The notes below the pieces were generated by a model that worked only from the letters and a program-made list of their open reading frames with translations, was not told the origin of the DNA and made no database searches. A stretch of DNA of 64,000 nt, taken from a candidate division TA06 bacterium B3_TA06 (GTDB taxonomy: Bacteria > Hydrothermota > Tepidihabitantia > B3-TA06). Numbering within the stretch: the stretch's first letter is position 1; the number at the start of each line of letters is the position of its first letter. The DNA lies in the NCBI GenBank assembly GCA_005223075.1, contig NJBO01000003.1:9902-73901 (forward strand), in the 5' to 3' direction. Below, piece by piece: positions 14,126 through 63,452 of the stretch. The position numbers and the translations under genes are program-made.

Positions 14126-14129
14126 AATC

Positions 14130-26745: not shown

Positions 26746-26809
26746 CCTTCCATGAAACTCGGAGGGGCAGATTTCTGCCCCTCCTCACAGATCACAAAAG
26801 GAGTAAGAG

Positions 26810-27253: not shown

Positions 27254-27326
27254 GGCATAATAGAAACCAAGCAGGGGGCGGGGTTACTCGCCCCCTCATA
27301 AACCTAAAACCTCAAAGGAGGAACAA

Positions 27327-27773: not shown

Positions 27774-27846
27774 GGCATAATAGAAACCAACCAGGGGGCG
27801 GGGTTACTCGCCCCCTCATAAACCTTAAACCAAAAGGAGGAACAAA

Positions 27847-28302
27847 ATGAGTAACTCCAAAAAACTCCTCATCGCCCTGGCTGTGATACTTGCAGTCGGG
27901 GCAACGCCCCTCCTCGCACAACTTGAAGGACCGTGGGCAGGCAATGGCGAAGGAAGCTGCAAGACACCCACCGGAATCACTATCTACCCTTGGCAGGAGT
28001 GGGACGGCTTCGTGGAGAATGGAGCCTTCGACGGCAGTTGGTGGGACGGCGACAACGGCGGCAACTTTCACGGCGACATAATATCCATCAGCACCCCAGT
28101 CCCACCCGCGGAACCACATGACGTAGCATACTGTGAAGGCACCTGGACATGGGTAAATGACGAGGGGGAGGAGATATCTATGGGCCAGTTCTGGATGAAC
28201 TTTGACCTCCTCTACGGAACATGCGAAGGTGAATGGTGGCCTTGCAATCGCCCTGAGCCTTGGGGCCCGGGAATCATGTGGGGCTGGAGGATAGGAGACT
28301 GA
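27847..28302 (+). CDS. Array paralog 4, subtype B
   Basis: 151 aa; YPWQEWDGFVENG ... CEGTWTWVND ... IMWGWRIGD. Confidence 0.7.
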   Translation: MSNSKKLLIALAVILAVGATPLLAQLEGPWAGNGEGSCKTPTGITIYPWQEWDGFVENGAFDGSWWDGDNGGNFHGDIISISTPVPPAEPHDVAYCEGTWTWVNDEGEEISMGQFWMNFDLLYGTCEGEWWPCNRPEPWGPGIMWGWRIGD

Positions 28303-28375
28303 GGCATAATAGAAACCAAGCAGGGGGCGGGGTTACTCGCCCCCTCATAAACCTTAAACCTCAAAGGAGGAACAA

Positions 28376-28813
28376 ATGAGCACCCCAAAAAAAATCCTGC
28401 TAACCGCTTTGGCGGTGATCCTTTTACTAGGGGCCACGCCTATTGCCGCCCAGATCGCAGGAGTCTGGGAGGGCACCGGTAAAGGCGCAGCTTACCCGCC
28501 CTGCCACCTACCTATATATCCATGGCAGAAATGGATAGGCGAGATACCAAACTCTGAAGACGTCTTTTTCGGCGAGTGGAAAGACACCCTTGACAACCAC
28601 GGCAGATTCGAAGGCAAGCCTGCACCTTACTCCACTCCTGATGCGAAGGTGTTCAAAGGCTACTGGACCTGGGAAACCCCCGAAGGGATATTCAAAGGCG
28701 GCGAATTCACGATGACCTTTTACTTCTTGGAAGGCGAATGCAAGGGCACCTGGACATCCATCTGGCCTTCGCCGGGCAAGCTGGGAACCATGAGAGGCTG
28801 GAAGGTGCACTGA
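28376..28813 (+). CDS. Array paralog 5, subtype A
   Basis: 145 aa; PPCHLPIYPWQKWIGEIP ... GTMRGWKVH. Confidence 0.7.
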   Translation: MSTPKKILLTALAVILLLGATPIAAQIAGVWEGTGKGAAYPPCHLPIYPWQKWIGEIPNSEDVFFGEWKDTLDNHGRFEGKPAPYSTPDAKVFKGYWTWETPEGIFKGGEFTMTFYFLEGECKGTWTSIWPSPGKLGTMRGWKVH

Positions 28814-28880
28814 AGCATACAACCAACCAGGGGGCGGCCCTCCGCCCCCTATAAACCTTAAACCTCAAAGGAGGAACAAA

Positions 28881-29318
28881 ATGAGTAACCCCAAAAAACT
28901 CCTCATCGCCGCGCTTGCGGTGATCTTCCTGCTCGGCGCAACGCCCCTTGCCGCCGAGCTAGACGGGTTCTGGGCAGGAACTGGCACTGGCTGCTGCCAT
29001 CCAGAGTCCACCACCATCACCATATACCCCTGGCAGACATGGGACGGCTTCGTCGTGAACCACGAGATCTTTCACGGTGAGTGGCAAGATAGCTTAGGAC
29101 ACCAAGGCACCTTCGAAGGAAGAGTCGTCCAGATAGACTCAACCTATGCGGTTTTCGAAGGCACGTGGAGATGGACTGACCCCACCATACTCATAATCCC
29201 TCCTGTTATAGGCGAGTTCCATATGGACTTCGATCTTCTCACCCGCACCTGCCTGGGCGAATGGTTCTACCATGAGGACTACGGAACCATGCAAGGACAA
29301 AAACTGGAGACAAAATAA
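28881..29318 (+). CDS. Array paralog 6, divergent B-like
   Basis: 145 aa; GCCHPESTTITIYPWQTWDGFVVN ... GTMQGQKLETK. Confidence 0.7.
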   Translation: MSNPKKLLIAALAVIFLLGATPLAAELDGFWAGTGTGCCHPESTTITIYPWQTWDGFVVNHEIFHGEWQDSLGHQGTFEGRVVQIDSTYAVFEGTWRWTDPTILIIPPVIGEFHMDFDLLTRTCLGEWFYHEDYGTMQGQKLETK

Positions 29319-29393
29319 GAAAGAACAGACAAACCAACCAGGGGGCGGGGTTACTCGCCCCCTCATAAACCTTAAACCTCAAAGGAGGAACAA

Positions 29394-29834
29394 ATGAGCA
29401 CCCCAAAAAAAATCCTGCTAACCGGTTTGGCGGTAATCCTTTTACTAGGGGCCACGCCGCTTGCCGCCCAGATCGCAGGAAGATGGGAGGGTACTGGTAC
29501 AGGCGAAGCTTACCCGCCCTGCCACCCGCCTATACACCCCTGGCAGATCTGGATGGGCGAGATCCCGCTCACTCAGGATGTTTTCACAGGCGAATGGTGT
29601 GACGCGGACTGCAATCACGGCACCTTCAAGGGCGAGATAGCCCCTTTCTCAACTCCAGAGGAAGCATACTGTGAAGGTTATTGGACGTGGGATGATCCTT
29701 CCAGCCCGTCCATCATTGTAGGCCATTTCAAGATGACGTTCTACATCCTGGAAGGAATATGCGAAGGCACCTGGACATCCATCTGGCCATCGCCCAGCGG
29801 TCCCGGAACCATGAAAGGCTGGAAGATAGACTGA
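29394..29834 (+). CDS. Array paralog 7, subtype A
   Basis: 146 aa; PPCHPPIHPWQIWMGEIP ... GTMKGWKID; 5' end nearly identical at nucleotide level to paralogs 5 and 12. Confidence 0.7.
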   Translation: MSTPKKILLTGLAVILLLGATPLAAQIAGRWEGTGTGEAYPPCHPPIHPWQIWMGEIPLTQDVFTGEWCDADCNHGTFKGEIAPFSTPEEAYCEGYWTWDDPSSPSIIVGHFKMTFYILEGICEGTWTSIWPSPSGPGTMKGWKID

Positions 29835-29907
29835 GGTATACCTCGACAGACCATCAGGGGGCGGCCCTCCGCCCCCTTACAAACCTTAAACCAAAAGGAG
29901 GAACAAA

Positions 29908-30342
29908 ATGAGTAACTCCAAAAAACTCCTCATCGCCGCGCTTGCGGTGATCTTCCTCGCAGGGGCTACGCCTCTCGCCGCCCAGCTCGCAGGAGTCTGG
30001 GCAGGCACGGGCGAAGGCTGCTGCAGCCCTCCCGGAACTACCATCTACCCTTGGCAGACGTGGAAGGGTGAAATACCCAACAGCCAAGACGTGTTTTCCG
30101 GCAAGTGGTGGGACGCAGATAGCAACCGGGGCACCTTCCACGGAAAGATAATAATCTCCAGTGTCACCGAAGCATACTGCGAAGGTATCTGGAACTTAGA
30201 TGACCCTTCAGGGGCTTCAATCATTGGAGGTGATTTCAAGATGACATTCTACATCCTGGAAGGAACATGCGAAGGCACCTGGATATCCATCTGGCCCACC
30301 GCCTTACCCGCAACCATGAGAGGCTGGAAGGTAGAACCGTAA
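29908..30342 (+). CDS. Array paralog 8, A/B mosaic
   Basis: 144 aa; B-type signal peptide with A-type body (YPWQTWKGEIPNSQDVFSGKWWD ... TMRGWKVEP). Confidence 0.7.
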   Translation: MSNSKKLLIAALAVIFLAGATPLAAQLAGVWAGTGEGCCSPPGTTIYPWQTWKGEIPNSQDVFSGKWWDADSNRGTFHGKIIISSVTEAYCEGIWNLDDPSGASIIGGDFKMTFYILEGTCEGTWISIWPTALPATMRGWKVEP

Positions 30343-30406
30343 AGTCACAACCTAGGGGGCGGGCTTGTGCCCCCTCATAAACCTCAAACCTCAAAGGAGG
30401 AACAAA

Positions 30407-30856
30407 ATGCACAACTATAAAAAACTCATACTCGCCGCCCTGGCAGTTATCCTGCTGCTGGGAGCCACTCCGGCGTTCGCTCAGCTGGCCGGAACCTGGG
30501 AGGGCACTGGTAGGGGCGAAGCTTACCCGCCCTGCCACCCTCCTATACACCCCTGGCAAAACTGGATAGGCGAGATCCCGAACTCTCAGGATGTGTTTTT
30601 CGGCGAATGGTGGGACTCGGACTGCAATCACGGCACCTTCAAGGGCGAAATAGCCCCTTTCTCCACTCCAGAGGAAGTATACTGTGAAGGCGAATGGACA
30701 TGGTACGACCCCACAGGCTCCTCTCACCAACCAATAGTCGGCGGCAAGTTCAAGATGACGTTCTACATCCTGGAAGGAAGATGCGAAGGCACCTGGACCT
30801 CCATATGGCCATCGCCCAGCGAGCACGGAACCATGAGAGGCAGGAAGGTACACTGA
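30407..30856 (+). CDS. Array paralog 9, subtype A
   Basis: 149 aa; start placed at ATG 30407 after SD aaaggagg; ends GTMRGRKVH. Confidence 0.7.
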   Translation: MHNYKKLILAALAVILLLGATPAFAQLAGTWEGTGRGEAYPPCHPPIHPWQNWIGEIPNSQDVFFGEWWDSDCNHGTFKGEIAPFSTPEEVYCEGEWTWYDPTGSSHQPIVGGKFKMTFYILEGRCEGTWTSIWPSPSEHGTMRGRKVH

Positions 30857-30925
30857 ACCTTAACGCCGAGCGGGGACGGGTTTCCATCCCCGCTCGGGAT
30901 AAACCTTAAACCAAAAGGAGAAGCA

Positions 30926-31354
30926 ATGAGTAACTCCAAAAAGCTAATGCTCACCGCCTTGGCGGTGATCTTTCTGATCGGAGCGACGCCTCTCTTCGCC
31001 GATCTCGACGGCATCTGGGAAGGCTACGGCGAAGGAAGCTGCGAGACACCCGCTGGAACCATCATCTACCCCTGGCAAACCTGGAACGGAACCGTTGATG
31101 AATACGGGTACTTCTCCGGCGAGTGGGAAGACTCGGACGGCAATCAAGGCACCTTCGAAGGCTGCATGGCGTCCCTGAACCCCCCAGTCTGCCCGGGGGT
31201 ATGGACATGGAGAGACGATTCGAGTCTCGAACCCATCGAGATGGGCCTATTCCAGATGGTCTTTTACGAGGTCCAAGGAACATGCAACGGCGAATGGTGG
31301 CCGTACTCTGGCGCTCAGGGTGGAACCATGTGGGGCTGGAGTATAGGAGACTAA
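30926..31354 (+). CDS. Array paralog 10, subtype B
   Basis: 142 aa; YPWQTWNGTVDEYG ... GGTMWGWSIGD. Confidence 0.7.
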   Translation: MSNSKKLMLTALAVIFLIGATPLFADLDGIWEGYGEGSCETPAGTIIYPWQTWNGTVDEYGYFSGEWEDSDGNQGTFEGCMASLNPPVCPGVWTWRDDSSLEPIEMGLFQMVFYEVQGTCNGEWWPYSGAQGGTMWGWSIGD

Positions 31355-31425
31355 GGCATAATAGAAACCAACCAGGGGGCGGCCATCCGCCCCCACTTAA
31401 ACCCTAAACCTCAAAGGAGGAACAA

Positions 31426-31875
31426 ATGAGTAACCCCAAAAAAATCCTCATCGCCGCGCTTGCGGTGATCTTCCTCGCAGGGGCGACGCCGCTTCTTGCC
31501 CAACTCAACGGTACATGGGCGGGCGAAGGAGAAGGCGTTTGCTCTCCGCCTCCCCCTATACCTACCGACTTCCCCATCTATGCTTGGCAGAACTGGAAAG
31601 GTCTGGTTGAGGATAATGAAGTCTTCTACGGCGAGTGGTACGATAACCGCTGTAACAACGGCACCTTCAAAGGCGAGATCGTATTCGTAACTCCCGAGGA
31701 TGCATACTGCGAAGGCGAGTGGCACTGGTTCGACGAACGCTACGACCCTCCGCGTGTCTACTACATGGGACCGTTTTCGATGAAGTTCAAGCTGGAAGAA
31801 GCAATATGCTACGGTGAATGGCGGACTTACTACAGTAATGAGAGCGGAACCATGAAAGGAGAAAAGATAGACTGA
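31426..31875 (+). CDS. Array paralog 11, divergent
   Basis: 149 aa; FPIYAWQNWKGLVEDNEVFYGEWYD ... GTMKGEKID. Confidence 0.7.
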   Translation: MSNPKKILIAALAVIFLAGATPLLAQLNGTWAGEGEGVCSPPPPIPTDFPIYAWQNWKGLVEDNEVFYGEWYDNRCNNGTFKGEIVFVTPEDAYCEGEWHWFDERYDPPRVYYMGPFSMKFKLEEAICYGEWRTYYSNESGTMKGEKID

Positions 31876-31953
31876 GGATATACCGGGAAACCGGCTAACC
31901 CAGGGGGCGGGCTTCCGCCCCCTGATAAACCCTAAACCTCAAAGGAGGAACAA

Positions 31954-32400
31954 ATGAGCACCCCAAAAAAAATCCTGCTAACAGGTTTGGCGGTGATCCT
32001 TTTACTAGGGGCCACGCCGCTTGCCGCCCAGATCGCAGGCACATGGGAAGGCACCGGAACCAGCTGCTGCTGTCCACACCCGGGCACGATCATCTACCCC
32101 TGGCAGGCGTGGGTAGGTGAGATCCCCAACTCCCAGGACGTCTTCACCGGCGAGTGGAAAGACAGCCTCGACAACCGCGGCACATTCAAGGGCGAAATCC
32201 TCTGGATCAGCACCACCGTCGCCATCGCCAGAGGTTCCTGGTACTGGTTCGATCCTACCGGTCCCAGTCACGAACCGGTCTACGGAGGCGACTTCGAGAT
32301 GAAGTTCTACGTCTACGAGAGGGAGTGCACCGGCACCTGGACATCCATCTGGCTATCGCCCAGCGAACACGGAACCATGAGAGGCAGAAAGGTACACTAA
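31954..32400 (+). CDS. Array paralog 12, subtype A
   Basis: 148 aa; CCCPHPGTIIYPWQAWVGEIP ... GTMRGRKVH. Confidence 0.7.
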   Translation: MSTPKKILLTGLAVILLLGATPLAAQIAGTWEGTGTSCCCPHPGTIIYPWQAWVGEIPNSQDVFTGEWKDSLDNRGTFKGEILWISTTVAIARGSWYWFDPTGPSHEPVYGGDFEMKFYVYERECTGTWTSIWLSPSEHGTMRGRKVH

Positions 32401-32466
32401 ACCTAAAGCCGAGGGGGGCGCAAACCCGTCCCCCTCGGGATGAACCTTAAACCAAAAGGAGAAGCA

Positions 32467-32922
32467 ATGAGTAACTCCAAAAAGCTAATGCTCACCGCCT
32501 TGGCGGTGATCTTTCTGATCGGAGCAACGCCGCTCTTCGCAGAACTCGACGGCATCTGGGAAGGCTACGGCGAAGGAAGCTGCGAGACACCCGCTGGAAT
32601 CATCATCTACCCCTGGCAAACCTGGAACGGCAGCCTGGAGTCATGGCTCTTCACCGGCCACTGGCAAGACTTGGACGGCAGCTCCGGCGGCTTCCAGGGG
32701 GCCGTCATATCCCTCGCCAAATCCGTTGAACCGCCTTACCATACGGTTGCTCACTGCGAAGGAACCTGGACGTGGATGGATCCCAGCGGCTTAGAACCCC
32801 TCGAAATGGGTCCCTTCAATATGGAGTTCAATCTGGACATTGACACCTGCTGGGGCAACTGGTACTCCTATTCTAGCCCCGGAATTGGCGGAACCATGTG
32901 GGGCTGGAGGATAGGAGACTGA
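32467..32922 (+). CDS. Array paralog 13, subtype B
   Basis: 151 aa; start placed at ATG 32467; first ~45 codons and upstream intergenic region nearly identical to paralog 10. Confidence 0.7.
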   Translation: MSNSKKLMLTALAVIFLIGATPLFAELDGIWEGYGEGSCETPAGIIIYPWQTWNGSLESWLFTGHWQDLDGSSGGFQGAVISLAKSVEPPYHTVAHCEGTWTWMDPSGLEPLEMGPFNMEFNLDIDTCWGNWYSYSSPGIGGTMWGWRIGD

Positions 32923-32942
32923 GGTATAATAGAAACCAACCA

Positions 32943-32971
32943 GGGGGCGGGCATCCGCCCCCGATTTTTTT
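32943..32971 (+). terminator. Intrinsic terminator closing the paralog array
   Basis: gggggcgg-gcat-ccgccccc followed by gattttttta; the only array hairpin with a T-tract. Confidence 0.7.
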
Positions 32972-32974
32972 AAA

Positions 32975-33012
32975 CCCCACACGGGCGCTTTACGTGCCCG
33001 TGCGGGGACCCC
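32975..33012 (-). repeat. R1 hairpin repeat (reverse orientation)
   Basis: ccccacacgggcgctttacgtgcccgtgcggggacccc. Confidence 0.65.
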
Positions 33013-34381: not shown

Positions 34382-34447
34382 TTACGCCTCCTTATTTGAT
34401 TGGCTGTGTATAATTCTCAGAATCGAGCGCTTGTCAAGCAATTTATA

Positions 34448-34483
34448 CCCCACGTCTTCACTTCGTGAAGCCGCGGGGACCCC
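34448..34483 (-). repeat. R1 hairpin repeat (reverse orientation)
   Basis: ccccacgtcttcacttcgtgaagccgcggggacccc. Confidence 0.65.
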
Positions 34484-34490
34484 GATTTTT

Positions 34491-34527
34491 GCTCCTTTTT
34501 GCCTTCGGCAAAAAGATCGCAAAGGAG
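34491..34527 (+). repeat. R8 hairpin repeat
   Basis: gctcctttttgccttcggcaaaaagatcgcaaaggag. Confidence 0.6.
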
Positions 34528-34642: not shown

Positions 34643-34674
34643 CTGCGATCTTTTCTCAGTATGAGAAAAGGAGC
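34643..34674 (-). repeat. R8 hairpin repeat (reverse orientation)
   Basis: ctgcgatcttttctcagtatgagaaaaggagc. Confidence 0.55.
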
Positions 34675-34719
34675 ATGTGAAAAACCGGGGCCGTGAGGCC
34701 CCGGCTCTTTGTGGTCTTT

Positions 34720-44157: not shown

Positions 44158-44245
44158 AGTGCAATGACACAGTCATTGCAGTCCAAAAGATTTTATGGAG
44201 TGCAACGAGCGTCTCGTTGCTTGCGACAACACGGTTGTCGCACTC
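44158..44245. repeat. REP-like palindromic cluster upstream of RAYT gene
   Basis: tgcaatgacacagtcattgca and ggagtgcaacgagcgtctcgttgcttgcgacaacacggttgtcgcactcc (outer stem enclosing two inner hairpins). Confidence 0.7.
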
Positions 44246-44262
44246 CAGAATAGCGTTGTATA

Positions 44263-44817
44263 ATGAGCGATGATTTAATCTACAAGCAGCACAAACACAA
44301 TCCACCTCATCTGTTCATCCCCAAAGCCAAATACTTCATCACCGCTTCTACATACCAGAAAAAGCCTTTTCTAAGTTCTCATGAGAGCAAATCGCGTCTC
44401 CTGGAATCCATAATTAAAGGATGCGATAAATCCAACTGGTTATTGGAAGATTGGGTTATACTCGACAATCATTATCACCTGATGCTGCAAGCCCCTGAGG
44501 AGGATCCTGATTTATCCAAAATGATCAGTGAAATCCATCGCTTTACCGCTCTCTGGATAAAGAAAAATGCCTTGGAAGCGAAATCGGCTAAAAGAATCTT
44601 CTGGAACTACTGGGATAGATGTATTACTCACGAACGGTCTTACTTTGCCAGACTAAACTACATTTACTTCAACCCGGTAAAGCATGGATATGTCCCAAAT
44701 CCTGAAGATTATCCGCATGGGAGTTATTATTACAGAATAAAGACTGAAGAAGAACGCCTCAAAAAACTACAACAAGATTATCCTTGGGGTCGTGTCAATG
44801 TCAATGACGATTTCTAG
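44263..44817 (+). CDS. REP-associated tyrosine transposase (RAYT, IS200-like Y1 HUH family)
   Basis: 184 aa; HUH motif NHYHLML and YIYFNPVKHGYV region; flanked on both sides by REP-like palindromes. Confidence 0.7.
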   Translation: MSDDLIYKQHKHNPPHLFIPKAKYFITASTYQKKPFLSSHESKSRLLESIIKGCDKSNWLLEDWVILDNHYHLMLQAPEEDPDLSKMISEIHRFTALWIKKNALEAKSAKRIFWNYWDRCITHERSYFARLNYIYFNPVKHGYVPNPEDYPHGSYYYRIKTEEERLKKLQQDYPWGRVNVNDDF

Positions 44818-44910
44818 CTTGACGCAACAACACGGTTGTCGTACTCCAAAAACCCACTCTGGAGTGCAACGAGCGCCTCGTTGCATGCAACAACACGGTT
44901 GTTGCACTCC
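44818..44910. repeat. REP-like palindromic cluster downstream of RAYT gene
   Basis: cttgacgcaacaacacggttgtcgtactcc and ggagtgcaacgagcgcctcgttgcatgcaacaacacggttgttgcactcc. Confidence 0.7.
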
Positions 44911-44924
44911 AAAATAATCTGTAA

Positions 44925-54435: not shown

Positions 54436-54537
54436 ATGGGAAAGGCAAAAGCCCCTATAAAGAAGAAAACCGCCAAGGCGACCAAAAGGACCTCTAGGAA
54501 GAAAAAAGCCGGCGGCAAAAAGAAGCGCAAGAAGTAA
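54436..54537 (+). CDS. Small lysine-rich basic protein (33 aa), hypothetical
   Basis: Not in ORF track; SD ggagg 5 nt upstream; MGKAKAPIKKKTAKATKRTSRKKKAGGKKKRKK. Confidence 0.3.
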   Translation: MGKAKAPIKKKTAKATKRTSRKKKAGGKKKRKK

Positions 54538-54589
54538 TTTGGTCTTGAGCCCATCGGGTTGTAAGCTCTGGTGGTCAGTGAGATTAGTA

Positions 54590-54723
54590 GCGCAGACCTT
54601 TAGGTCCGCCTTTATTTTTAGCGAGGCTAATACCCTATGAGCGCATAAAGCGCTCAAGGGGCACGCTGAGCCTCGCACTACATGCTGTGTGCTATACATG
54701 TAGTGCGGGACTTTAGTCCCGCT
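54590..54723. repeat. REP-like hairpin cluster upstream of IS200-like gene
   Basis: gcagacctttaggtccgc, ccctatgagcgcataaagcgctcaaggggcacgctg, cgcactacatg...catgtagtgcg, gcgggactttagtcccgc. Confidence 0.65.
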
Positions 54724-54789
54724 AAATAAAACTCAACGAAAAGGAAAGGTTAGGTTGACAAAAAACATGGTCTGATTTACTCTAACCCA

Positions 54790-55248
54790 ATGAGGAAGAA
54801 GCGAATACGCCTCAAGTCTTTCGATTACCTGGGTGCTTACAGATACTTCGTGACCATCTGCACGCATAACCAGAAGCAGGCATTCACCAGCGAGGGGCGC
54901 GTAAGAACCGTCTCTGACATTCTGAAAGAAACCGCTGAGCAGGAAGGATTCACGGTCTGGGCCTGGTGTTTCATGCCGGATCATTTGCACATCCTTGTCG
55001 AAGGTGTTAATGAGAAATCCGATCTCCGCCGGTTCATGAAGATATTCAAACAGAAAAGCGGCTATCAGTGGAAGCAGATTGAAGGCGAAAAGTTATGGCA
55101 GGAAGATTACTTCGAGCGCATCCTGCGGCGGGAAGAAACCACCCCAAAGGTCATAGAATACATTCTCAACAACCCTGTGCGGCGTGGTTTGGTTTCTTCT
55201 CCGGAGGAGTACCCCTTCTCCTATTCTCTTTTAGACAACAACATGTAG
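54790..55248 (+). CDS. IS200-like Y1 HUH transposase (RAYT-type)
   Basis: 152 aa; HUH motif DHLHILV, YILNNPVRRGLV region; flanked by REP-like hairpins; stop codon lies within the conserved catgtag REP terminus. Confidence 0.7.
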   Translation: MRKKRIRLKSFDYLGAYRYFVTICTHNQKQAFTSEGRVRTVSDILKETAEQEGFTVWAWCFMPDHLHILVEGVNEKSDLRRFMKIFKQKSGYQWKQIEGEKLWQEDYFERILRREETTPKVIEYILNNPVRRGLVSSPEEYPFSYSLLDNNM

Positions 55249-55441
55249 CGCGGGACTTCAGTCCCGCAGCGAGTCTAAAGACTCGCTCTACACGAATATA
55301 ATCTGGAATTGTGATCAGTCAAGGTAGAACATGTAGCGTGAACCCCAGAGTGCCCCCTTTGGACATTAGGTTCGCAGCGAGTCTAATACCCTATGAGCGC
55401 ATAAAGCGCTCAAGGGATACGCTGAGACTCGCACTACATGT
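55243..55441. repeat. REP-like hairpin cluster downstream of IS200-like gene
   Basis: gcgggacttcagtcccgc, gcgagtctaaagactcgc, ccctatgagcgcataaagcgctcaagggatacgctg, tcgcactacatg. Confidence 0.65.
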
Positions 55442-55463
55442 CTTATTCCACAAGAGAAGCAAT

Positions 55464-57251
55464 TTACTCCGGTATCGTAGCGATGATCTTGGGATCGACC
55501 TTGTACTGTTTCAGGAATTCGCGCCGCTTGAACTTCATGGTCTTGACCCAGTTACGGTAGACATCCATCTTCTTATTCTTCTCAAAGAAAAGGATAGGAT
55601 TGAGGATTTCTGCCGGCACCTTTTTGAGCAAATCCGCGTTCTCCTTAGCCTCCACGTCCACAATCTCGTAGCCGAAGTCAGGATCAAGCTGCCAGGCTAT
55701 CTTACCGGCAAGCATCCCCTCAAGCATCGCTGACGAGTGAGGAATCTTGACCTTGAGTGCTTTGCCCGCCTCAACGTCATTCGCATCGCCGCCGATATAG
55801 CCGGTGTTCATGAGCCAGGTCTCGAGATTTGGTATCTGGGCACTAAGCTCTGCAAACCGGACCGCCTGAAGACCCATCGCCTTTGGGAAGAAGGGCTGGG
55901 TGAAGGGCGAGCGTGTTCTGCCGCGCTCCTTGCCCGCTGCAGAGGTCTTGGTGGTCTCGCCCAACATAAAATAGGCCGCTGCCTGTTCGGTAGAGACAAA
56001 GCGCACGATGCCGGGCATGGCCGCGTCCGGTCCCTCGTCCCGGTTCAGGATGCCCATCGAACGCACGGACGGAATATCCCGCAAATCCGCCGCACCCTCG
56101 ATACGCGACATGGGGATCACCGAACGACCGTTCTGGGTCCAGACCAAAAAATCCCAGCCGTCTTCCGGGATGCCATAGGCATCCACTTTATCCTCAATAT
56201 TGACCTCCCCACTGATGTAGGCGTCCACGTTTTTCTGCAAAGCGCCGGTGATGATCAGGTAGTCGCGCAAACGCTTGACTTCTTCAGGAGTAAGACGTTC
56301 CTTGGAGAAATCGAACCCGCCCTCAGCATCGGTGTAGACGTTCTCTACCCAGGCCGCGGGATCGAGGGTGCCTTTGTAGATAATCGGTTCCGATTCCTCC
56401 TTAAGCCCCCAGGTCTTGGCGAACGCGCCATTCTCAGTGATTGTAATCTTCCCTCCCGGCCACAGGCACACCATGTCGTCCTGGATCGGTTGGGTCAGCT
56501 CGCCCTGCTTGGAGAATGTGGTGGTGGTCTTTCCCGTTCCTGAAAGCCCCATCACGGTCATGGTGATGCGCTCGCCGCGGATGGTCACCGCCTTGGCCCC
56601 GGCGTGAAGCACCAGGCCGCCGCGCTGATAAACGTAGTCGTTAAGCATTCTGAGAGCCCCCTTCTTGGACTCGCCGAAGTAGTCCGCACCGATCACGTAT
56701 GTTGTGTAGTTCTCTAGGTCTACAATAATGGCCTGCCCGCCCGGCATGTCGGGAAGTGGAAACTCGGGAACCATCACCACCCGGATCACCGGTTTGTACT
56801 CCTCGGCAAGCTGCTCGGGCGTCTCTACCGCATCGCGCGGGAAAGAAAGAATCTGCTGCATGCCGGCAACGTTCGCGCACGGCAGGGTGTAAAGCCACTG
56901 GATAGGGAAGCGCCGCTCGTCCAGCCCGTAGTAGCCCTGGATCTCGATCAGCCTGCCCTGCAGTTCCACATACTCCCACACCCGGCTCAGGATGCGTTCG
57001 GCGCGATCAGGCTCGATCACCTTGCTCGAATAAAGATGCGCATCGGGCTCAGGAGCGATGACGTAGGTGTATTGGGCTTTCCGCGCCTTGTTACGCGCGA
57101 TCTTCGAGATGTTACCGTATTTCGTAACATAGCAGGCCGGTGTGTGTTCCAACGCCAGCCGGCGCAGGTCGGCTTGCGACGGGTTCTTGATGTAAGCTAC
57201 GTTGAACGGATGCGGCTCCTCCTGGGGCGGCACCCGCTTGACCTTCGACAT
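55464..57251 (-). CDS. pckA: Phosphoenolpyruvate carboxykinase (ATP-type)
   Basis: 595 aa; kinase-1a motif GLSGTGKTT and PEPCK-like ATP-binding regions; SD aggagg. Confidence 0.7.
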   Translation of the reverse strand: MSKVKRVPPQEEPHPFNVAYIKNPSQADLRRLALEHTPACYVTKYGNISKIARNKARKAQYTYVIAPEPDAHLYSSKVIEPDRAERILSRVWEYVELQGRLIEIQGYYGLDERRFPIQWLYTLPCANVAGMQQILSFPRDAVETPEQLAEEYKPVIRVVMVPEFPLPDMPGGQAIIVDLENYTTYVIGADYFGESKKGALRMLNDYVYQRGGLVLHAGAKAVTIRGERITMTVMGLSGTGKTTTTFSKQGELTQPIQDDMVCLWPGGKITITENGAFAKTWGLKEESEPIIYKGTLDPAAWVENVYTDAEGGFDFSKERLTPEEVKRLRDYLIITGALQKNVDAYISGEVNIEDKVDAYGIPEDGWDFLVWTQNGRSVIPMSRIEGAADLRDIPSVRSMGILNRDEGPDAAMPGIVRFVSTEQAAAYFMLGETTKTSAAGKERGRTRSPFTQPFFPKAMGLQAVRFAELSAQIPNLETWLMNTGYIGGDANDVEAGKALKVKIPHSSAMLEGMLAGKIAWQLDPDFGYEIVDVEAKENADLLKKVPAEILNPILFFEKNKKMDVYRNWVKTMKFKRREFLKQYKVDPKIIATIPE

Positions 57252-57621
57252 CTATATCCTCCTGGGATTCAGCTCAAGCCTCTTACAATACGTATCTTAC
57301 TCAGGGAAACGGGAATTGCAAGTGGTCGGCGTCGTGATTACTCTACTGTTTAAATCGGCGCCAACTCGTCAGGTTTGAGTGGCACTCGTCACCAAAAAGA
57401 TGGTCAAATGCTGGTCAAAAGCTGGTCAAAAGCTACCCAAAAGATGGACAAAAGCGCGACTGCGTCGCAATTACAGATTGAAGATTCAAGATTGAAAGAT
57501 TTAAAGATAGCTCCGCAAGCGTCGCCCTCCGGTGCAAATATCAAAATGCAAAGCAAAGTTAAGGGGGCTGACAGCCGTCGGCCGTGAGCTGTAAGCTGTT
57601 TGCCGTGAGCTCCTAGGGGGG

Positions 57622-57649
57622 TTGACAAGCAGCTTCTTTGGAATAAATT
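57622..57649 (+). promoter_or_regulatory. Putative promoter TTGACA-N16-TAAATT ending 5 nt before ATG 57655
   Basis: ttgaca 57622-57627 (the ORF-track TTG start codon lies in this -35); weak -10. Confidence 0.35.
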
Positions 57650-57654
57650 TAGAT

Positions 57655-59493
57655 ATGAGTTTAAGAAGAGAGCTTTTATTTCTCATTTCACTTTCATTTG
57701 GGCTCTTCATTTTTTGTGGGGAAAGGGAACTGACACCCCAAGAGATTTTTAGGTCAGATTCGTTTTATACCGAGGCTTTGCGTTATGAAAAATTTGGAAA
57801 TTTGGATAGTGCAAGGGTTTTATGTGAAAACGCCTTAAGAATAAACCCTAAACATTACGATGCTCAGAGAAAATTAGCTGCAATTTACTTCGTTACTCAA
57901 GATTACCCCCAGGCTGAAGGGACATACCGTAGTTGTGTTGAATTAAAGCCAGATGATTTTTGGACTCAGTATAACCTAGGCTTGGCCTTACTTTACCAAG
58001 GTAAATTCTCTGAAGCCGCATTAGCAATTCGGAAGGCCATCGAGATTGACTCTACCCGCATTTTTGCATTTATTCACCTTACTGGTGCTTTAATTGGTAA
58101 AGGCGATGTTGTTAACGCAGAAATCGAAATAAGAAAAGCCATGAGTATTGAGCCGCAAAACGTAGATTTTCGACTTCATCATGCCTGGATATTATTTGTA
58201 AAACAAGATTTCGATAGAATGGAAGAAGAGGTTGATAATGTTTTGCTCTCTAATCCAGATATTACGTTTGCCCATTATTTGCGAGCTATAATTTGGTTAG
58301 TCAGAAATAAACTAGATAGAGCTGAGGTCGAATTCAAAAAAGCTATCGAATTGGAGCCAAATTTACCTCAGTTACACGCTCTACTTGGAGGGGTGAAACT
58401 TAAAACGGGTAATTTGGGGGAAGCGGAAGAAGAATTAAAACGGGCGTTGGAGTTGGGTGATACTCACCCTTCAACATACAATAATCTTGCTACCCTTTAT
58501 GAAAGGCAAGGTCGAACCCAAGAAGCAGAGGAAACATACATAAAAGCCATTGAATTAAGCAGTGATGACCCTACGCCTTACAACAATTTAGCATTTCTTC
58601 TATTTTACAAAGGTGAGTTAGACAGTTCATCAGTTGTTTTTTCAAAAGCCTTGACTTTAGCGAAAGAGGGCGAAGCACCCAGCATAAAAGATATTGCAGA
58701 GGATTTTACTAAAGTGTTACTCATTAAGGGCTGGGAAAATTGTATATTAGGCGATTTAGATGAAGCAACACTTGAGATTGATTCAGCAATTTCAGTGCTT
58801 AATAATTACGAAGTGCGTTCAAGAGGGAGTGAGAAGATACTTAAAGTTAATGCTAATACTCTGAGAGGTATAGTTTATCTTAAACAAAGAAAACCGGGCC
58901 AAGCTACCGAAAAGTTCGCCAAAGCCTTGGAAAACGATCCGAGAGATACTGTGGCCAGATATAACCTTGCCTTAGCTTATTTAATGGCTGGCCGTTTCGA
59001 TAATGCAGAATTGGCAGCCTCAGCTGCTATTTATCTAGCTGGTGAAAAAGGGTACCCGGAAGGAGAAAGTCTCTTAACTTACATTAAGAAAAAGAGGGAG
59101 GAAAGAAATGCAGGGTTTCGTTTTCATTGGATTCAATTAGGTGCCCTTGTACTAGTCGTCGGTTGGCTTGCCGCTTCTATGTGTGTTTTCTTTCATAAAA
59201 AAATAGGGAAAACTAAAAAAGGTCAGGAATTCAGAAGGCGATGGGCATATACATTTATGTTGATTTGGATTGCTTTGGCATTCATTTTCTTTATCTTCCC
59301 ATATACGAAGATTGTCACTTTCCCTACTGGCGGACAAGTCGAATTAGACCAAGATAGAATAAGACTCCCACAAGAAATAAGCCCTGATTTCTCACGTATT
59401 GCACAGCCCCAAATAATGACTTTTCCTGAAGAACCAAAATTCCAAATCGATATGGTTCTCGATTTAAGGAGTTACGCACCCCAATCTCCTTGA
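57655..59493 (+). CDS. TPR-repeat protein with C-terminal transmembrane segments
   Basis: Start placed at ATG 57655; multiple 34-aa TPR-like repeats; two hydrophobic helices near C-terminus; AT-rich relative to surroundings. Confidence 0.7.
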   Translation: MSLRRELLFLISLSFGLFIFCGERELTPQEIFRSDSFYTEALRYEKFGNLDSARVLCENALRINPKHYDAQRKLAAIYFVTQDYPQAEGTYRSCVELKPDDFWTQYNLGLALLYQGKFSEAALAIRKAIEIDSTRIFAFIHLTGALIGKGDVVNAEIEIRKAMSIEPQNVDFRLHHAWILFVKQDFDRMEEEVDNVLLSNPDITFAHYLRAIIWLVRNKLDRAEVEFKKAIELEPNLPQLHALLGGVKLKTGNLGEAEEELKRALELGDTHPSTYNNLATLYERQGRTQEAEETYIKAIELSSDDPTPYNNLAFLLFYKGELDSSSVVFSKALTLAKEGEAPSIKDIAEDFTKVLLIKGWENCILGDLDEATLEIDSAISVLNNYEVRSRGSEKILKVNANTLRGIVYLKQRKPGQATEKFAKALENDPRDTVARYNLALAYLMAGRFDNAELAASAAIYLAGEKGYPEGESLLTYIKKKREERNAGFRFHWIQLGALVLVVGWLAASMCVFFHKKIGKTKKGQEFRRRWAYTFMLIWIALAFIFFIFPYTKIVTFPTGGQVELDQDRIRLPQEISPDFSRIAQPQIMTFPEEPKFQIDMVLDLRSYAPQSP

Positions 59494-59528
59494 CTTCCCT
59501 CTTTAATCTCCGCCAAATCACTTAACTA

Positions 59529-59564
59529 CCCCACAACTCCGCTTCGCGTAGTCGCGGGGACCCC
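59529..59564 (-). repeat. R1 hairpin repeat (reverse orientation)
   Basis: ccccacaactccgcttcgcgtagtcgcggggacccc. Confidence 0.65.
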
Positions 59565-59612
59565 AAGGGGATCGTGCTGCATATGAGATCGCCACGGTCG
59601 CGATGACGTAAT

Positions 59613-59697
59613 CCCCTCCCCCTTAATCCCCCTACCCTATGGGGTGCAGTAAAATTGGCACCCCAAGGGGCACGCTGTCCACAAAGGGAGGGGGAAC
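59613..59697 (+). repeat. R2 ~85-bp MITE-like element
   Basis: cccctcccccttaatccccctaccctatggggtgcagtaaaattggcaccccaaggggcacgctgtccacaaagggagggggaac; a degenerate second copy follows at ~59720-59810. Confidence 0.7.
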
Positions 59698-59865
59698 TGT
59701 AGCCCTCACCCCAACCCTCTACCCTATAGGATACCCTATGAGATGCAATAAAGTTAGCATCTCAAGGGGCACACTGTGCAGTAAAGTAGGTATCCCACGG
59801 GGCACGCTGAGATCTGCCCCTACATCTTTATCCCTTTGAGCTTAAAATCGCTTGCGTGGGGTGGA

Positions 59866-62800
59866 TTATAGTTTTCCGTGCACGCGGACCCTGCGCACGC
59901 AGGGAATAGACTTCAAACGCTCTATAAGCTCTGCCGAAGGGCTTACCCTTATATCCTTGCTCCGTATACGGGTGCGTTCGTTATCATCTTCGCCGTTACT
60001 CAAGTTTATGTAAAAGGCGCAGCGTCCCGGAAACTCCTCCGTCAGTTTGCGTATCTTTAGGAGATTCTCCCTGGAGACTTCTTGTTCGTCAAGTTCCACG
60101 ATCATCTTATTCAGTCTTGCCCGTGCGGCGCTGAACGGGATTATCTCTTCACTGAAGAGCTTTGCCCTTGTATCATCCTCACTAACCGCTGCGCGTCCCT
60201 TAACCAGTATGGGTTCGTCTGAGCGAAGGATCGAACGGTGCTGCTCGTAGAGCCTTGCGAACACGAACACGTCTATCTCACCGGTGAAGTCGCGCAGGGT
60301 TATAATTGCATATTCACGTCCATTCTTGTCGCGCTTTGCTTTGCGAGCCGCAACTGCCCCGCCAACAACAATGGTTTTACCGTCCATACGTTCGTCTATC
60401 TCTTCGATTGGAGATACATCAAGCGCTTCGTAGAGGTCCTGGTAGTCCTCCAACGGGTGCCCTGACAGGTAAAAACCGAATGCGTCCTTCTCGTAGCTTA
60501 AAAAATCGGTGGGCTTGAACTTCTTTTGTTTGCGCCTCTCTGACTTTTCCTTGATACCTTGTGTATCGGCGAAAAGCCCTTGTTGTTTCTCAAGTATCAG
60601 CCCGCGCTTGTTCCCCAGTCGTGAGATCTCGTCGGGAAGATGAGCTATCAGAAGCTCCCGGTCCGGGTCGATTGAATCGAAGCAACCGGCTTTGATCAGG
60701 AACTCCGCACACTTGCGGTTCACCGTTCCGTGGGTGCGGGTAAGGAAGTCTCGCATGTCGGAAAAAGGCTCTTTTGAGTTCTCTTGCTCGATAAGCTCCG
60801 CCGCGCCTCTCCCCACGTTCTTAATAGCCCCGATGCCGAAACGGATTGCATCCCCTTGGATTAGGAACTCATAACCGCTTTTGTTTATCTCCGGCGGAAG
60901 GATCTTAATCCCGAACTTGCGGGCATCGGCGATGAACTGAGCCATCTTTGCTTCCGAATGTCCCATCTCGTTGGTCAAAAGGGCGGTGAAGAACTCAAGC
61001 GGGTAGTTGGCCCTAAGATATGCGGTGGCGTAGGAGATATGGGCATATCCGGCGGAGTGCGACTTGTTGAATCCGTAGCCCGAGAAGGGCGCGATCTGGT
61101 CGAAGATAGCCTTAGCTACCTTCTCAGGTACCCCCTCTTTCTTTGCCCCTTCGAAGAACTGCTGCTTCATCTCGGCCATGAGTTCTGGTATCTTCTTTCC
61201 CATGGCGCGGCGCAGGTGGTCGGCCTGAACGTAAGAAAATCCGGCGATAGCTCGGGCGGTTTGCATCACCTGCTCCTGGTAGATGAACATACCGTGGGTT
61301 CCGGCAAGCACCGGTTCCAGACGCGGATGCAGGTAGGTGATCTCGCTTTCTCCGTGTTTGCGGCGGAAGAACTCATCCAGATCAATGTTGGCCAGTGGTC
61401 CGGGTCTGTAGATTGCGATAACCGCGATGATGTCCTCGATCTGGGTAGGACCAAGTTTTCTCAGAATCTCACGCATACCCCTGCTTTCCAGCTGGAAGAT
61501 GCCAGTGGTCTCGGCGCGTTGCAACAGCTGGAAGGTTTTTTTATCATCCAGGGGAAGATTTTTGGTGTCGATTTTTTGACCGTCTTGGTTGATGAGCTTC
61601 TCGCTCATCTTGATCACCGACAGGGTTCTCAGCCCCAGGATGTCCATCTTTAAAAGACCGATTGAGTCCACGGCCTTCATGTCGAACTGGGTCGAGATAC
61701 CGTCGTCTGCAGCCTTGTAGAGGGGGATGAACTCGGTCAATGGCTCGGGAGTAATCACCACGCCTGAGGCGTGGATTGATGCGTGGCGCGATATGCCCTC
61801 AAGCTTCTGAGCGACGTTAAACAGTCGCTCGTAGAGAGGATCGGTCTTGATGGCCTCGGTAAGTTCCTTCTGGGTGTTGCGTGCCTCACGAAGACTTGCG
61901 TTAAATGGGATGAGCTTTGCCAGCCTGTCGACCTCACCGAATGGGATGTCCAGCGCCCTTCCAACGTCGCGAACCGCGGCCTTGGCCTTCATGGTGTCGA
62001 AGGTGATGATGCGTGCGACGTTCTCCTGGCCGTAGCGCTCGTGGATATAGTCAATGACCCTATCGCGATCCTCGTCCGCGAAGTCTATGTCGATATCGGG
62101 AAGGGTTATGCGGTCAGGGTTCAGGAAACGCTCGAATATCAGTCCGTAGTGGATGGGGTCAAGCGCGGTGATGTCCAGTGAGTAAAGAACCAGGCTCCCA
62201 ACCGCCGAACCCCGTCCTGGCCCCACAGGCACACCGGTCTTCCGTGCGTAGTCAACGATGTCTTTCACGATCAGGAAGTACCCGGCGAAGCCAGTCTTGC
62301 GGATGATAGCAAGCTCATGCTCAAGACGTTGCGCGTATATTTTTTTCTCCATAGGACACTTCTGGCGGCAGCCAGAGGAAGCGAGTTCCCTCAGATAGGA
62401 CATCGAAGAGTCGAACTCCTTGGGGATAGGGTAGCGCGGCAGTTTGAAGTTGCGGGTATCCAGGTCAATGCTCACCATGCAGCGCTCGGCTATCTTGACC
62501 GTGTTTTCAAGAGCTTCAGGCAAATCCTTGAAAGCTTCGGCCATCTCCTTGGGCGATTTGAAGTACATCTCGTTTGACTCGAATCGCATCCGGTCAACAT
62601 CGTCCACCTTCTTCCCGGTCTGGATTGCCAAGAGGACATCATGGGCGTCGGCGTCCTCGCGGCTAAGAAAGTGACAGTCGTTGGTGGCCACCACATCCAC
62701 ACCATCTTCTCGTGCCAGATCAACGATGAGTTTAATCATATCGGCACTTTCCGGCAGCCCCAGGTTCTGCACCTCAATGAAGAAGTTCTCAGGCCCGACG

Positions 62801-63306
62801 ATGTCAAGGTAGGATCGCAGGGCTGCTCTGGCCGTCTTGATATCCCCCCGGGCCAACGCCGAGGGAATCTCACCTTTCCAGCAGCCAGAAAGACCAATGA
62901 TTCCCTCGCTGTGCTCGGCAAGTATTTCCTTATCTATTCGAGGCTTATAGTAGAAACCTTCGAGATATGCGATAGAGGAAAGCTTTATAAGGTTCTTGTA
63001 GCCTTTATTGGTTGCGGCAAGCAGGGTAAGATGGTAGTTTGTTTCGCCCGAAGCAGGGGTTTCTTTCTTCTCGGAGATGGATCCGGAAGCAACGTAGGTC
63101 TCTATCCCTATTATGGGCTTTACCCCCCGCTTCTGCATCGCCTTGTAGAAGGGTACTGTGCCAAACATGTTCCCGTGATCGGTCATCGCCACCGCAGGCA
63201 TCTTGAAGCGATGCGCCTGCTCGGCCAGTTCCTTGACCCGGATGGAACCGTCAAGAAGGCTGTACTCGGTGTGCAGATGAAGATGGACAAAGTTCGACTC
63301 AGGCAT
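59866..63306 (-). CDS. dnaE: DNA polymerase III alpha subunit
   Basis: 1146 aa; N-terminal PHP domain HLHLHTEYSLLDG, polymerase core and OB-fold regions. Confidence 0.95.
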   Translation of the reverse strand: MPESNFVHLHLHTEYSLLDGSIRVKELAEQAHRFKMPAVAMTDHGNMFGTVPFYKAMQKRGVKPIIGIETYVASGSISEKKETPASGETNYHLTLLAATNKGYKNLIKLSSIAYLEGFYYKPRIDKEILAEHSEGIIGLSGCWKGEIPSALARGDIKTARAALRSYLDIVGPENFFIEVQNLGLPESADMIKLIVDLAREDGVDVVATNDCHFLSREDADAHDVLLAIQTGKKVDDVDRMRFESNEMYFKSPKEMAEAFKDLPEALENTVKIAERCMVSIDLDTRNFKLPRYPIPKEFDSSMSYLRELASSGCRQKCPMEKKIYAQRLEHELAIIRKTGFAGYFLIVKDIVDYARKTGVPVGPGRGSAVGSLVLYSLDITALDPIHYGLIFERFLNPDRITLPDIDIDFADEDRDRVIDYIHERYGQENVARIITFDTMKAKAAVRDVGRALDIPFGEVDRLAKLIPFNASLREARNTQKELTEAIKTDPLYERLFNVAQKLEGISRHASIHASGVVITPEPLTEFIPLYKAADDGISTQFDMKAVDSIGLLKMDILGLRTLSVIKMSEKLINQDGQKIDTKNLPLDDKKTFQLLQRAETTGIFQLESRGMREILRKLGPTQIEDIIAVIAIYRPGPLANIDLDEFFRRKHGESEITYLHPRLEPVLAGTHGMFIYQEQVMQTARAIAGFSYVQADHLRRAMGKKIPELMAEMKQQFFEGAKKEGVPEKVAKAIFDQIAPFSGYGFNKSHSAGYAHISYATAYLRANYPLEFFTALLTNEMGHSEAKMAQFIADARKFGIKILPPEINKSGYEFLIQGDAIRFGIGAIKNVGRGAAELIEQENSKEPFSDMRDFLTRTHGTVNRKCAEFLIKAGCFDSIDPDRELLIAHLPDEISRLGNKRGLILEKQQGLFADTQGIKEKSERRKQKKFKPTDFLSYEKDAFGFYLSGHPLEDYQDLYEALDVSPIEEIDERMDGKTIVVGGAVAARKAKRDKNGREYAIITLRDFTGEIDVFVFARLYEQHRSILRSDEPILVKGRAAVSEDDTRAKLFSEEIIPFSAARARLNKMIVELDEQEVSRENLLKIRKLTEEFPGRCAFYINLSNGEDDNERTRIRSKDIRVSPSAELIERLKSIPCVRRVRVHGKL

Positions 63307-63340: not shown

Positions 63341-63350
63341 GAAATTTAGT

Positions 63351-63382
63351 GCTCCTTTCCGCCTTCGACGGAAAGATCGCAG
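63351..63382 (+). repeat. R8 hairpin repeat
   Basis: gctcctttccgccttcgacggaaagatcgcag. Confidence 0.55.
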
Positions 63383-63452
63383 AAGCAATTCCTAGCACCT
63401 GGTAGTTTCTAGGATGATTCGTGGAGATATTGAAAGCTAAGAATCTATACCT

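Follow-up and report, generated by a model that had tools for sequence, protein, structure and literature searches.

A short covarying hairpin core nested in REP-type and other intergenic repeats of an uncultured WOR-3/Stahlbacteria bacterium

Copies of the repeat and their common core

We analysed a short intergenic repeat in a 64,000-nt stretch of contig NJBO01000003.1 (positions 9,902 to 73,901; referred to here as the window), from an uncultured bacterium of the WOR-3/Stahlbacteria clade. The original prediction had described this repeat as an element of about 85 bp resembling a miniature inverted-repeat transposable element (MITE), with three full copies and one degenerate copy. All three full copies (A, B and C) were found, each of approximately 87 nt and with 93% identity across 92–94 nt; the start of copy B, which had been placed at 10334, approximately 10 nt too early, lies at 10344. 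The 27-nt 5′ part of this composite sequence occurs three times in the window, versus zero occurrences by chance. Each copy is intergenic: copy A lies between a converging TPR-protein gene (57622-59493, +) and dnaE (59866-63306, -), copy B lies upstream of purM, and copy C occupies an 880-bp divergent spacer crowded with other small repeats.

Short-pattern searches of the window returned extra partial matches that had only an inner segment of the composite in common. The conserved unit is this inner core of 38–45 nt, in which TACCCTATG and CAAGGGGCACRCTG bracket a variable covarying hairpin; its fuller formula is TACCCTATG, a 5–6-bp stem of free sequence with a loop of 3–10 nt, and CAAGGGGCA(CRCTG or GGCTC), and a second tail variant, CAAGGGGCAGGCTC, was found among the matches to a covariance model that we built from 35 distinct cores. 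The model identified eight cores in the window, comprising six full, one diverged and one truncated core (Table 1). The stretch that had been taken for a single degenerate copy does have a degenerate leader, and behind it lie a second complete core and a third core truncated at its 5′ end. In the diverged copy TACCC and GGGCACGCTG are kept and the middle is different; this region is conserved in a related locus (L061).

Table 1. Positions of the core-bearing repeats and associated features in the window (REP, repetitive extragenic palindrome; RAYT, REP-associated tyrosine transposase; bit scores of cores are from the covariance model; ^ marks the position of the core)
Feature	Position	Strand	Details
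Copy A of the composite	59613-59698	+	C-rich host leader 59613-59632; core 59633-59677 (55.2 bits, E = 3.9e-15); host 3′ part TCCACAAAGGGAGGGGGAACT 59678-59698
Copy B of the composite	10344-10429	+	Core 10364-10408; hairpin GGGCGC/GCGCCC
Copy C of the composite	4778-4863	-	Core 4799-4843
Region predicted as one degenerate copy	59699-59823	+	Degenerate C-rich leader 59699-59731; complete core 59732-59776 (56.6 bits; hairpin AGATGC/GCATCT); 5′-truncated third core 59777-59809 (partial match 59791-59809); REP-like 3′ arm AGATCTGCCCCTAC 59810-59823
Diverged copy in C-rich/G-rich host	6690-6768	+	Core 6710-6750 (17.8 bits, E = 0.003)
GTAG-type REP with core in its loop	54620-54684	+	Core 54631-54668 (61.4 bits)
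Second inverted REP pair 3′ of first RAYT gene	55330-55440	+	44.5 bits; REP with reversed core remnant 55330-55375 (remnant ~55345); REP 55376-55440 with near-complete core 55387-55424 (2 mismatches)
Empty palindromic REP GTAGGGGCACGGCA^CGCCGTGCCC	10551-10574	.	Second empty copy 23277-23300
First RAYT gene (HUH/Y1)	54790-55248	+	152 aa; NCBIfam NF047646, 110.9 bits (cut-off 80); Pfam PF01797 Y1_Tnp, E = 2.9e-13
Inverted pair of empty REPs directly 3′ of first RAYT gene	55242-55294	.	Conserved in all five orthologous loci
Second RAYT gene	44263-44817		NF047646, 109.5 bits; ~26% identical to first RAYT
Copy B block	10344-10500		Upstream of purM; also L061 4002-4160 and L055 1-142

The inner hairpin noted in the original prediction (GGGGTGC/GCACCCC) is real and shows compensatory changes within the window itself, reading GGGGCGC/GCGCCCC in copy B, GAGATGC/GCATCTC at 59741-59767 and AGCGC/GCGCT at 54640-54654. 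There are 66 distinct hairpin inserts of 13–22 nt among the copies. Standard pairs make up 96.4% of pair cells in the 35-sequence alignment, and the 82 double-change cells compare with 25 ± 5 in shuffled alignments, none of 500 shuffles reaching 82; the signal was lost when the partner column was slid. The foot of the stem, CCCTATG/CAAGGGG, contains fixed T.G and A.A mismatches, and its six pairs are invariant in the alignment but were fixed by the search pattern and so are not evidence either way; diverged copies show occasional single changes only. The near-invariant interior comprises 23 nt, in junction strands of 9 and 14 nt, and the core has neither a GTAG nor terminal inverted repeats of its own. 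Folding gave z = -5.1 for the REP-hosted copy at 54620-54684, with a less decisive result for composite copy A (-20 kcal/mol with DNA parameters, z about -2).

An exact-pattern scan of 185,579 species, with one genome per species, returned 113 stretches carrying the core, all of them in seven WOR-3/Candidatus Stahlbacteria metagenome-assembled genomes (MAGs), while metagenome contigs contributed at least 120 stretches with the core pattern and no core was found in the viral contigs scanned. In the genome loci from the seven MAGs the covariance model found about 150 copies, and all but four of the placed copies lie outside open reading frames (ORFs; crude ORF calls). The window is not from any of these MAGs; its closest relative is SOJW01000020.1 (E44_bin36), with 88–91% identity in syntenic genes. 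The view of a dispersed, intergenic, non-coding repeat with many more copies elsewhere was therefore borne out genome-wide, and the module is restricted to one clade, that of the uncultured WOR-3/Stahlbacteria bacterium to which the repeat belongs. Two homologous loci in BNJS01000534.1 (L131 7277-7323) and ODIS01000002.1 (L198 2519-2565) match both conserved flanks of the core, but the 24-nt middle has no clear hairpin; they were rejected as copies and probably represent an unrelated sequence of a different organism. A number of contigs from MAGs and metagenomes start or stop inside a core or host hairpin (L055, L018 and L180 at their starts; also L092 and L028), suggesting that the repeats break short-read assemblies of this lineage.

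Host hairpins with and without the core

The ends of the composite, CCCCTCCCCCTT and AAGGGAGGGGG, form an imperfect inverted repeat and had been read as terminal inverted repeats. Around the conserved interior the termini fall into at least four unrelated classes, which we call hosts. Host a, which surrounds the copies first described and accounts for ~53 of 148 copies, is a C-rich/G-rich hairpin of ~40 nt with the consensus CCCCTCCCCC-(TA/TTTAT)-CCCCC^TCCNNNNGGGAGGGGG, the core lying at ^; around the core it reads CCCCTCCCCC-(TA/TTTAT)-CCCCC^TCC(A/C)NNNNGGGAGGGG, and the arm also takes the form CCCCC^TCC..GGGAGGGG. The other three classes are GTAG-type REPs, namely host b (GGGCCGACCTGA^AGGTCGGCCCCTAC), host c, a perfect palindrome (GTAGGGGCACGGCA^TGCCGTGCCCCTAC), and host d (AGCGAGGCTAA^AGCCTCGCACTAC(ATG)); their GTAG lies on the strand opposite to the plus strand of the core, and in the C-rich host a GTAG occurs only by chance at the host–core junction. 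The REP at 54620-54684, upstream of a RAYT gene, has the layout AGCGAGGCTAA-core-AGCCTCGCACTACATG with GTAG on the minus strand, and the empty REP at 10551-10574 is of the host type that elsewhere holds the core at its centre. Further cores lie in a recurrent context beside TGCCCCGAAGGGGTAC and in a hairpin situated ~28 nt inside an apparent IS3-like element end. The subtype of the core hairpin correlates with that of the host, and hybrid host arms are present in three loci (L033, L082 and L106).

Empty versions of hosts a, b, c and d are all common; for host a the sequence CACCCTCCCCCTACCCCC^TCCCGTCAAGGGAGGGG is found in L001, with dozens more elsewhere. Since host a is abundant without the core, the inverted ends of the original prediction are the arms of this hairpin rather than transposon termini, even though CCCCTCCCCC(TT)/(AA)GGGAGGGGG are indeed imperfectly complementary. 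This bears directly on the proposal of a classical MITE, in which a non-autonomous transposon of ~85 bp with terminal inverted repeats CCCCTCCCCC/GGGAGGGGG would be moved by a DDE transposase with duplication of its target. Three near-identical intergenic copies of ~87 nt with inverted termini speak for such an element, as does the recurrence of the composite with a 45-nt core as a unit in several genomes. In REP hosts, however, the core has entirely different termini; the inverted termini of the composite are a stand-alone hairpin repeat, abundant without the core; neither the window nor the loci yielded an insertion sequence whose ends match; and no target-site duplication was seen at the three copies, the flanks of which (aat/gta, ttt/att and att/att) show no consistent direct repeat. 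A conserved interior with varying termini is the opposite of a MITE, the mobile unit being the core of 38–45 nt, and we consider the MITE assignment highly improbable.

The claim of a G-quadruplex (G4) also depends on the host. The complementary strand, GGGTAGGGGGAT(A/T)AAGGGGGAGGGG, does fit the canonical pattern of four runs (G3+N1-7 ×4). Every full copy has one such motif (plus strand, 4839-4863; minus strand, 10344-10368 and 59613-59637), together three of the nine in the window, and the motif is present in 45 of 61 copies in C-rich hosts, as would be expected had the repeat been kept because a G4 on its G-rich strand regulates replication or transcription. Against this, the motif is found in only 6 of 87 copies in other hosts, being missing from the remaining 81, and occurs only at the host–core junction; one G-run comes from the core (ACCC) and three from the host-a leader, so that empty hosts do not have the full motif. 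When all three copies were folded with ViennaRNA (quadruplexes allowed, RNA parameters), a long hairpin of -49 to -53 kcal/mol outcompeted the quadruplex, which was absent from the predicted minimum-energy fold. The motif looks incidental, and a G4 element has very little to commend it as an explanation of the repeat.

Comparison of filled and empty sites revealed seamless gain and loss of the core. One orthologous REP following the same gene is an empty palindrome in MAG095 (L051); in E44_bin36 (L022) it contains a forward 38-nt core, and in RS_17_4 (L093) a reversed core, likewise of 38 nt, that belongs to the other tail subfamily. The insertion is exactly 38 nt and the flanking bases are not duplicated. 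The two cores differ at ~9 of 38 positions whereas the surrounding intergenic DNA is ~95% identical, indicating separate acquisitions rather than inversion. Upstream of the RAYT gene, the window and L114-116 have a REP that holds a core, whereas L117 has the same REP without one; a compensatory pair distinguishes the hairpins of L114-116 from that of the window (AGCGC/GCGCT to AGCAC/GTGCT). Host-a hairpins with identical arms lack the core in L023 and L001 but contain it in L032, L101, L062 and L069. One core is nested in the hairpin loop of another (L094 7231-7307). The insertion points lie in or beside hairpin loops (TGA^A, TAA^A, CA^TG, CAAG^T and CCCCC^TCC) and share no common motif, and the left flanks of the core (CTGA, CTAA, GGCA, CCCC, GAAA and others) give no fixed target of 4–5 nt. 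In the asymmetric REP hosts b and d the plus strand of the core is always the strand with the CTAC 3′ foot (~30 to 0), and in the palindromic host c the core occurs in both orientations. No target-site duplications were found at composite or core borders, and the filled/empty comparisons were seamless throughout. The core is thus an independent module that inserts or excises seamlessly.

Recombination between host arms is the chief alternative for spread inside a host family, and such a pattern could in principle arise by recombination only, with one rare entry per host family followed by spread, loss and flipping through gene conversion or homologous recombination between short host arms and no dedicated transposase. 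This would account for the borders being seamless and for a polarity that is fixed in asymmetric hosts while both orientations occur in the palindromic host, and it agrees with the existence of hybrid host arms and with the tracking of host subtype by hairpin subtype. It would, however, require at least six independent exact entries (hosts a to e, the loop of another core and the IS3-like end) and conversion between arms of merely 8–14 bp, and the invariant 23-nt junctions and retained hairpin in seven species imply a recognition factor; we therefore regard recombination as the sole process as improbable.

In three assemblies an IS3-family element (L067 690-1953, L040 2160-2353 and L128 about 2740-2850) has a core ~40 nt before its first ORF, enclosed in a short hairpin (CCTCTA...TAGAGG). 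The element may harbour the core as a passenger and might spread it horizontally. At three other loci (L046, L038 and L086) an IS30-like transposase gene begins directly beside a core. We also noted a match below threshold to the anti-hemB small RNA family of Rfam at 6985-7066 on the minus strand (37.1 bits versus a gathering cut-off of 49.5), overlapped by weak suhB and mmgR matches; the sequence is CCUCC-rich and ends in a CCCCUCCC-GUCAA-GGGAGGGG hairpin followed by a U-rich stretch, which suggests that empty host-a C-rich hairpins can resemble terminators.

Orientation, coding potential and RNA function

The ORFs of 60–91 aa at 59639-59839, 10370-10645 and 4655-4837 all start at the ATG within the CCCTATGGGG of the core. 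As originally predicted, these MGCSK ORFs are spurious, being the repeat read in one frame. Their interpretation as protein-coding genes was rejected: the compensatory changes in the hairpin would replace amino acids (Cys to Arg, Thr to Ala), variation of its length between 13 and 22 nt alters the reading frame, and the ends of the ORFs extend into unrelated flanking sequence.

According to crude ORF-based gene calls, cores between co-directional genes are sense in 29 cases and antisense in 30; convergent gene pairs flank another 22 cores and divergent pairs another 23. This absence of orientation bias relative to genes indicates that the element acts as DNA and makes a function tied to an RNA strand unlikely. 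A structured RNA, such as a protein-binding hairpin, an mRNA stabiliser or terminator cap, a small ribozyme or a riboswitch-like motif, would nevertheless account for the architecture of the core, the host stems then being the variable closing helix of a motif in which the junction strands (9 and 14 nt) do not vary and the inner helix shows strong covariation. The U.G pair of the stem foot is possible on one strand only, an orthologous copy shows a compensatory change, and copy B is perfectly conserved in three species, all of which favour an RNA. Set against these points are the near equality of sense and antisense copies and the occurrence of the core in divergent promoter regions as frequently as at 3′ ends, its dozens of copies per genome, its varying presence at orthologous sites and either orientation at one site, and the fact that DNA hairpins of single-strand recombinases covary likewise. 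Rfam 15 gave no match to the element in the whole window at gathering thresholds and no relevant match even at E <= 10 over 4200-10750 and 54500-59900, and a tRNA/tmRNA scan was negative. On balance a conserved RNA motif is an improbable explanation for the family.

Several specific motifs were considered and rejected. The 3′ strand has no extra U for the 11-nt receptor of the GAAA tetraloop (UAUGG/CCUAAG), leaving only a partial resemblance, and the defining sequence features of a K-turn, box C/D, group II domain V, integron attC and Xer sites were absent on inspection by eye. Individual copies may still have been exapted for an RNA function, with copy B as one candidate: together with ~70 nt of unique downstream sequence (AACTATTATCTCGAATAAGCAAACATTCCTAAATTCCCAT...) it is 99–100% identical at an orthologous position in three genomes, copy B itself being 100% identical in the window and in two other Stahlbacteria MAGs. 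This block could be a small RNA, a regulatory region or the product of recent exchange.

RAYT genes and a possible route of movement

The window contains two RAYT genes. The first (54790-55248) has d-type REPs clustered on both sides and cores at 54631 and 55387. Upstream of it are an empty REP, the core-bearing REP 54620-54684 and another empty REP; downstream, the stop codon of the gene lies inside the GTAG of the first REP of the pair 55242-55294, and the second pair, 55330-55440, is specific to the window and absent from the orthologous loci. RAYT orthologs with 75–93% amino acid identity share the arrangement of neighbouring genes (His_Phos - x - RRM - small basic protein - RAYT - PEPCK), and the gene is single-copy-like and syntenic in relatives. 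The second RAYT gene is bracketed by its own inverted arms of 57 nt (44193-44249 and 44858-44914), which form a REPIN (paired REPs in inverted orientation) built from GGAGTGCAACGAGCG.CTCGTTGC and GCGACAACACGGTTGTCGC hairpins and belong to a different REP family, in none of whose copies a core was seen. A tblastn search of the 113 genome and 120 metagenome loci found one distant RAYT homolog (L035), with unrelated flanking repeats of its own. Only the RAYT of the window is bracketed by cores. Between direct pairs of cores (L032, L044, L056, L031, L090 and L093) we found ordinary genes only, for example a DUF559-like ORF, and no autonomous element.

We conclude that this is probably a nested, mosaic repeat of REP type, in which the core is a module mobile at the DNA level. 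The observations behind this view are the structure and number of the cores, their confinement to one lineage, which is rich in RAYTs and REPs, the seamless sites with and without a core, the absence of a transcription-strand bias and the neighbouring RAYT gene. A mechanism can be proposed for its movement, in which an HUH/Y1 RAYT would act on the core as a hairpin of single-stranded DNA; we infer this handling from the properties of the IS200/IS605 TnpA enzymes and of the E. coli RAYT. The T.G and A.A mismatches in the stem foot would allow a protein to tell the two strands apart, and the nearest candidate enzyme would be the RAYT at 54790-55248, with cores in REPs on both sides. The core would land in single-stranded loop regions of unrelated hairpin repeats; the loops entered are those of the C-rich host, three GTAG-type REP families, another core and the hairpin near the IS3-like end. 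Once inside a host hairpin, the composite would spread or be homogenised as a whole unit, and may also spread by recombination between host arms. Assignment of the core to a RAYT in this way is tentative, and we are rather doubtful of the boldest form of the proposal, that the core is a self-contained single-hairpin mobile DNA module that homes seamlessly into hairpin loops by means of a domesticated RAYT.

A number of observations weigh against the interpretation as a mobile module served by a RAYT. The core has no GTAG and its flanks no constant tetranucleotide, and in this it does not resemble the classical substrates of REP or IS200/IS605 systems. Arm recombination or gene conversion would account just as well for the fixed polarity and the seamless borders, and the hybrid arms of L033, L082 and L106 indicate that arm recombination happens. 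The link between RAYT and core is a prediction; empty d-type REPs accompany every RAYT ortholog, and the presence of the core there varies between genomes, while no RAYT was found beside the C-rich composites. Replication-strand bias, estimated from local GC skew, was also absent (64 versus 62), a comparison that is noisy on 8-kb blocks. Finally, the genes flanking the copy B block are only 78–91% identical among the three genomes in which the block itself is nearly invariant, which hints at selection or recent exchange beyond a purely selfish model.

The closest parallels are with the REP/REPIN-RAYT systems (Nunvar 2010; Bertels & Rainey 2011; Ton-Hoang 2012). As in those systems, the repeats here are short extragenic palindromes in dozens of copies, GTAG stands at the hairpin foot in three host families, inverted REP pairs lie on both sides of a short, syntenic and vertically inherited HUH/Y1 gene, and each of the two different RAYT genes in the window has its own REP type. 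In the standard picture REPs flank the RAYT gene (PMC3337134, PMC3116915), the REP arms of REPINs are conserved and the spacer poorly conserved, and each REP family is private to one RAYT, no hybrids having been reported (PMC3337134). Here, in contrast, the most conserved part is a module in the loop, individually present or absent, and this core is common to several REP families and a non-GTAG hairpin.

Bacterial interspersed mosaic elements (BIMEs) resemble the present repeats as mosaics of REP arms and a separate conserved internal motif in extragenic clusters. In E. coli BIME-1 a conserved L motif, which is an IHF site, lies between two inverted REPs. BIME motifs thus stand between two REPs, whereas the core is inside the loop of one REP, and no BIME internal motifs are known that form covarying hairpins or seamless indels shared with non-REP hairpins. 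IS200/IS605 elements, which move by "peel and paste", and their miniature derivatives, the palindrome-associated transposable elements (PATEs), have no terminal inverted repeats and no target duplication, are seamless, and are recognised through imperfect, mismatched hairpins; their enzymes belong to the same family as RAYTs, each of their two ends has a hairpin, and they insert 3′ of a fixed target of 4–5 nt. The E. coli RAYT cleaves on both sides of a single REP. The core differs from a PATE in having one hairpin, 38–45 nt and no constant flanking tetranucleotide, the target being apparently structural, namely hairpin loops. Insertion sequences that target REP loops (IS1397/ISKpn1 and the IS110-family ISPpu9/10) are full-length and encode their own transposase; the core shares their specific insertion into REP hairpins and differs in being a 38-nt non-coding module. 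We consider the repeat best filed within REP/BIME-type repeats, as an unusual variation and not a new class of system.

Other repeats were noted in the window. Two further hairpin families, GGGGTCCCCGCG...CGTGGGGTA (4392-4430, 4738-4775, 5061-5114, 14124-14174, 34439-34489 and 59522-59575) and TGCGATCTTTT..(loop)..AAAAGGAGCA (4680-4722, 4973-5015, 34489-34521, 34644-34675 and 63347-63389), lie alongside the core-bearing elements in clustered intergenic mosaics that change fast from one related genome to the next. Tandem 11-bp units (GCTGGTCAAAA and variants, 5–8 units) are present in spacers beside the repeats at 4412-4504 and 57372-57475, and also in related MAGs (L060, L062 and L069); their helical-turn spacing suggests an iteron-like protein-binding array. 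A tandem array of ~13 paralogous units of ~510 bp, 60–95% identical, occupies 26200-33000, many units having a conserved leader (TAAACCTYAAACCTCAAAGGAGG) and some then a GC-rich hairpin. The array has the look of a family of small secreted or repeat proteins that expanded recently.

In practical terms, nested repeats of this kind yield spurious ORFs of 60–90 aa and break MAG assemblies. The sharing of one core among repeat families reverses the closed-pair arrangement expected of REP/REPIN-RAYT systems, and if the core is a self-contained module that homes into hairpin loops as single-stranded DNA by means of a RAYT, it would rank with the smallest mobile elements on record and would be a hyperparasite of REP populations, crossing boundaries between REP families that REPIN-RAYT pairs normally keep. 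If a RAYT moves it, the core would represent a minimal substrate for HUH/Y1 single-strand transposition and a natural case of structure-targeted insertion into hairpin loops, which would give insight into the role of RAYTs and possibly lead to tools for hairpin-directed DNA insertion.

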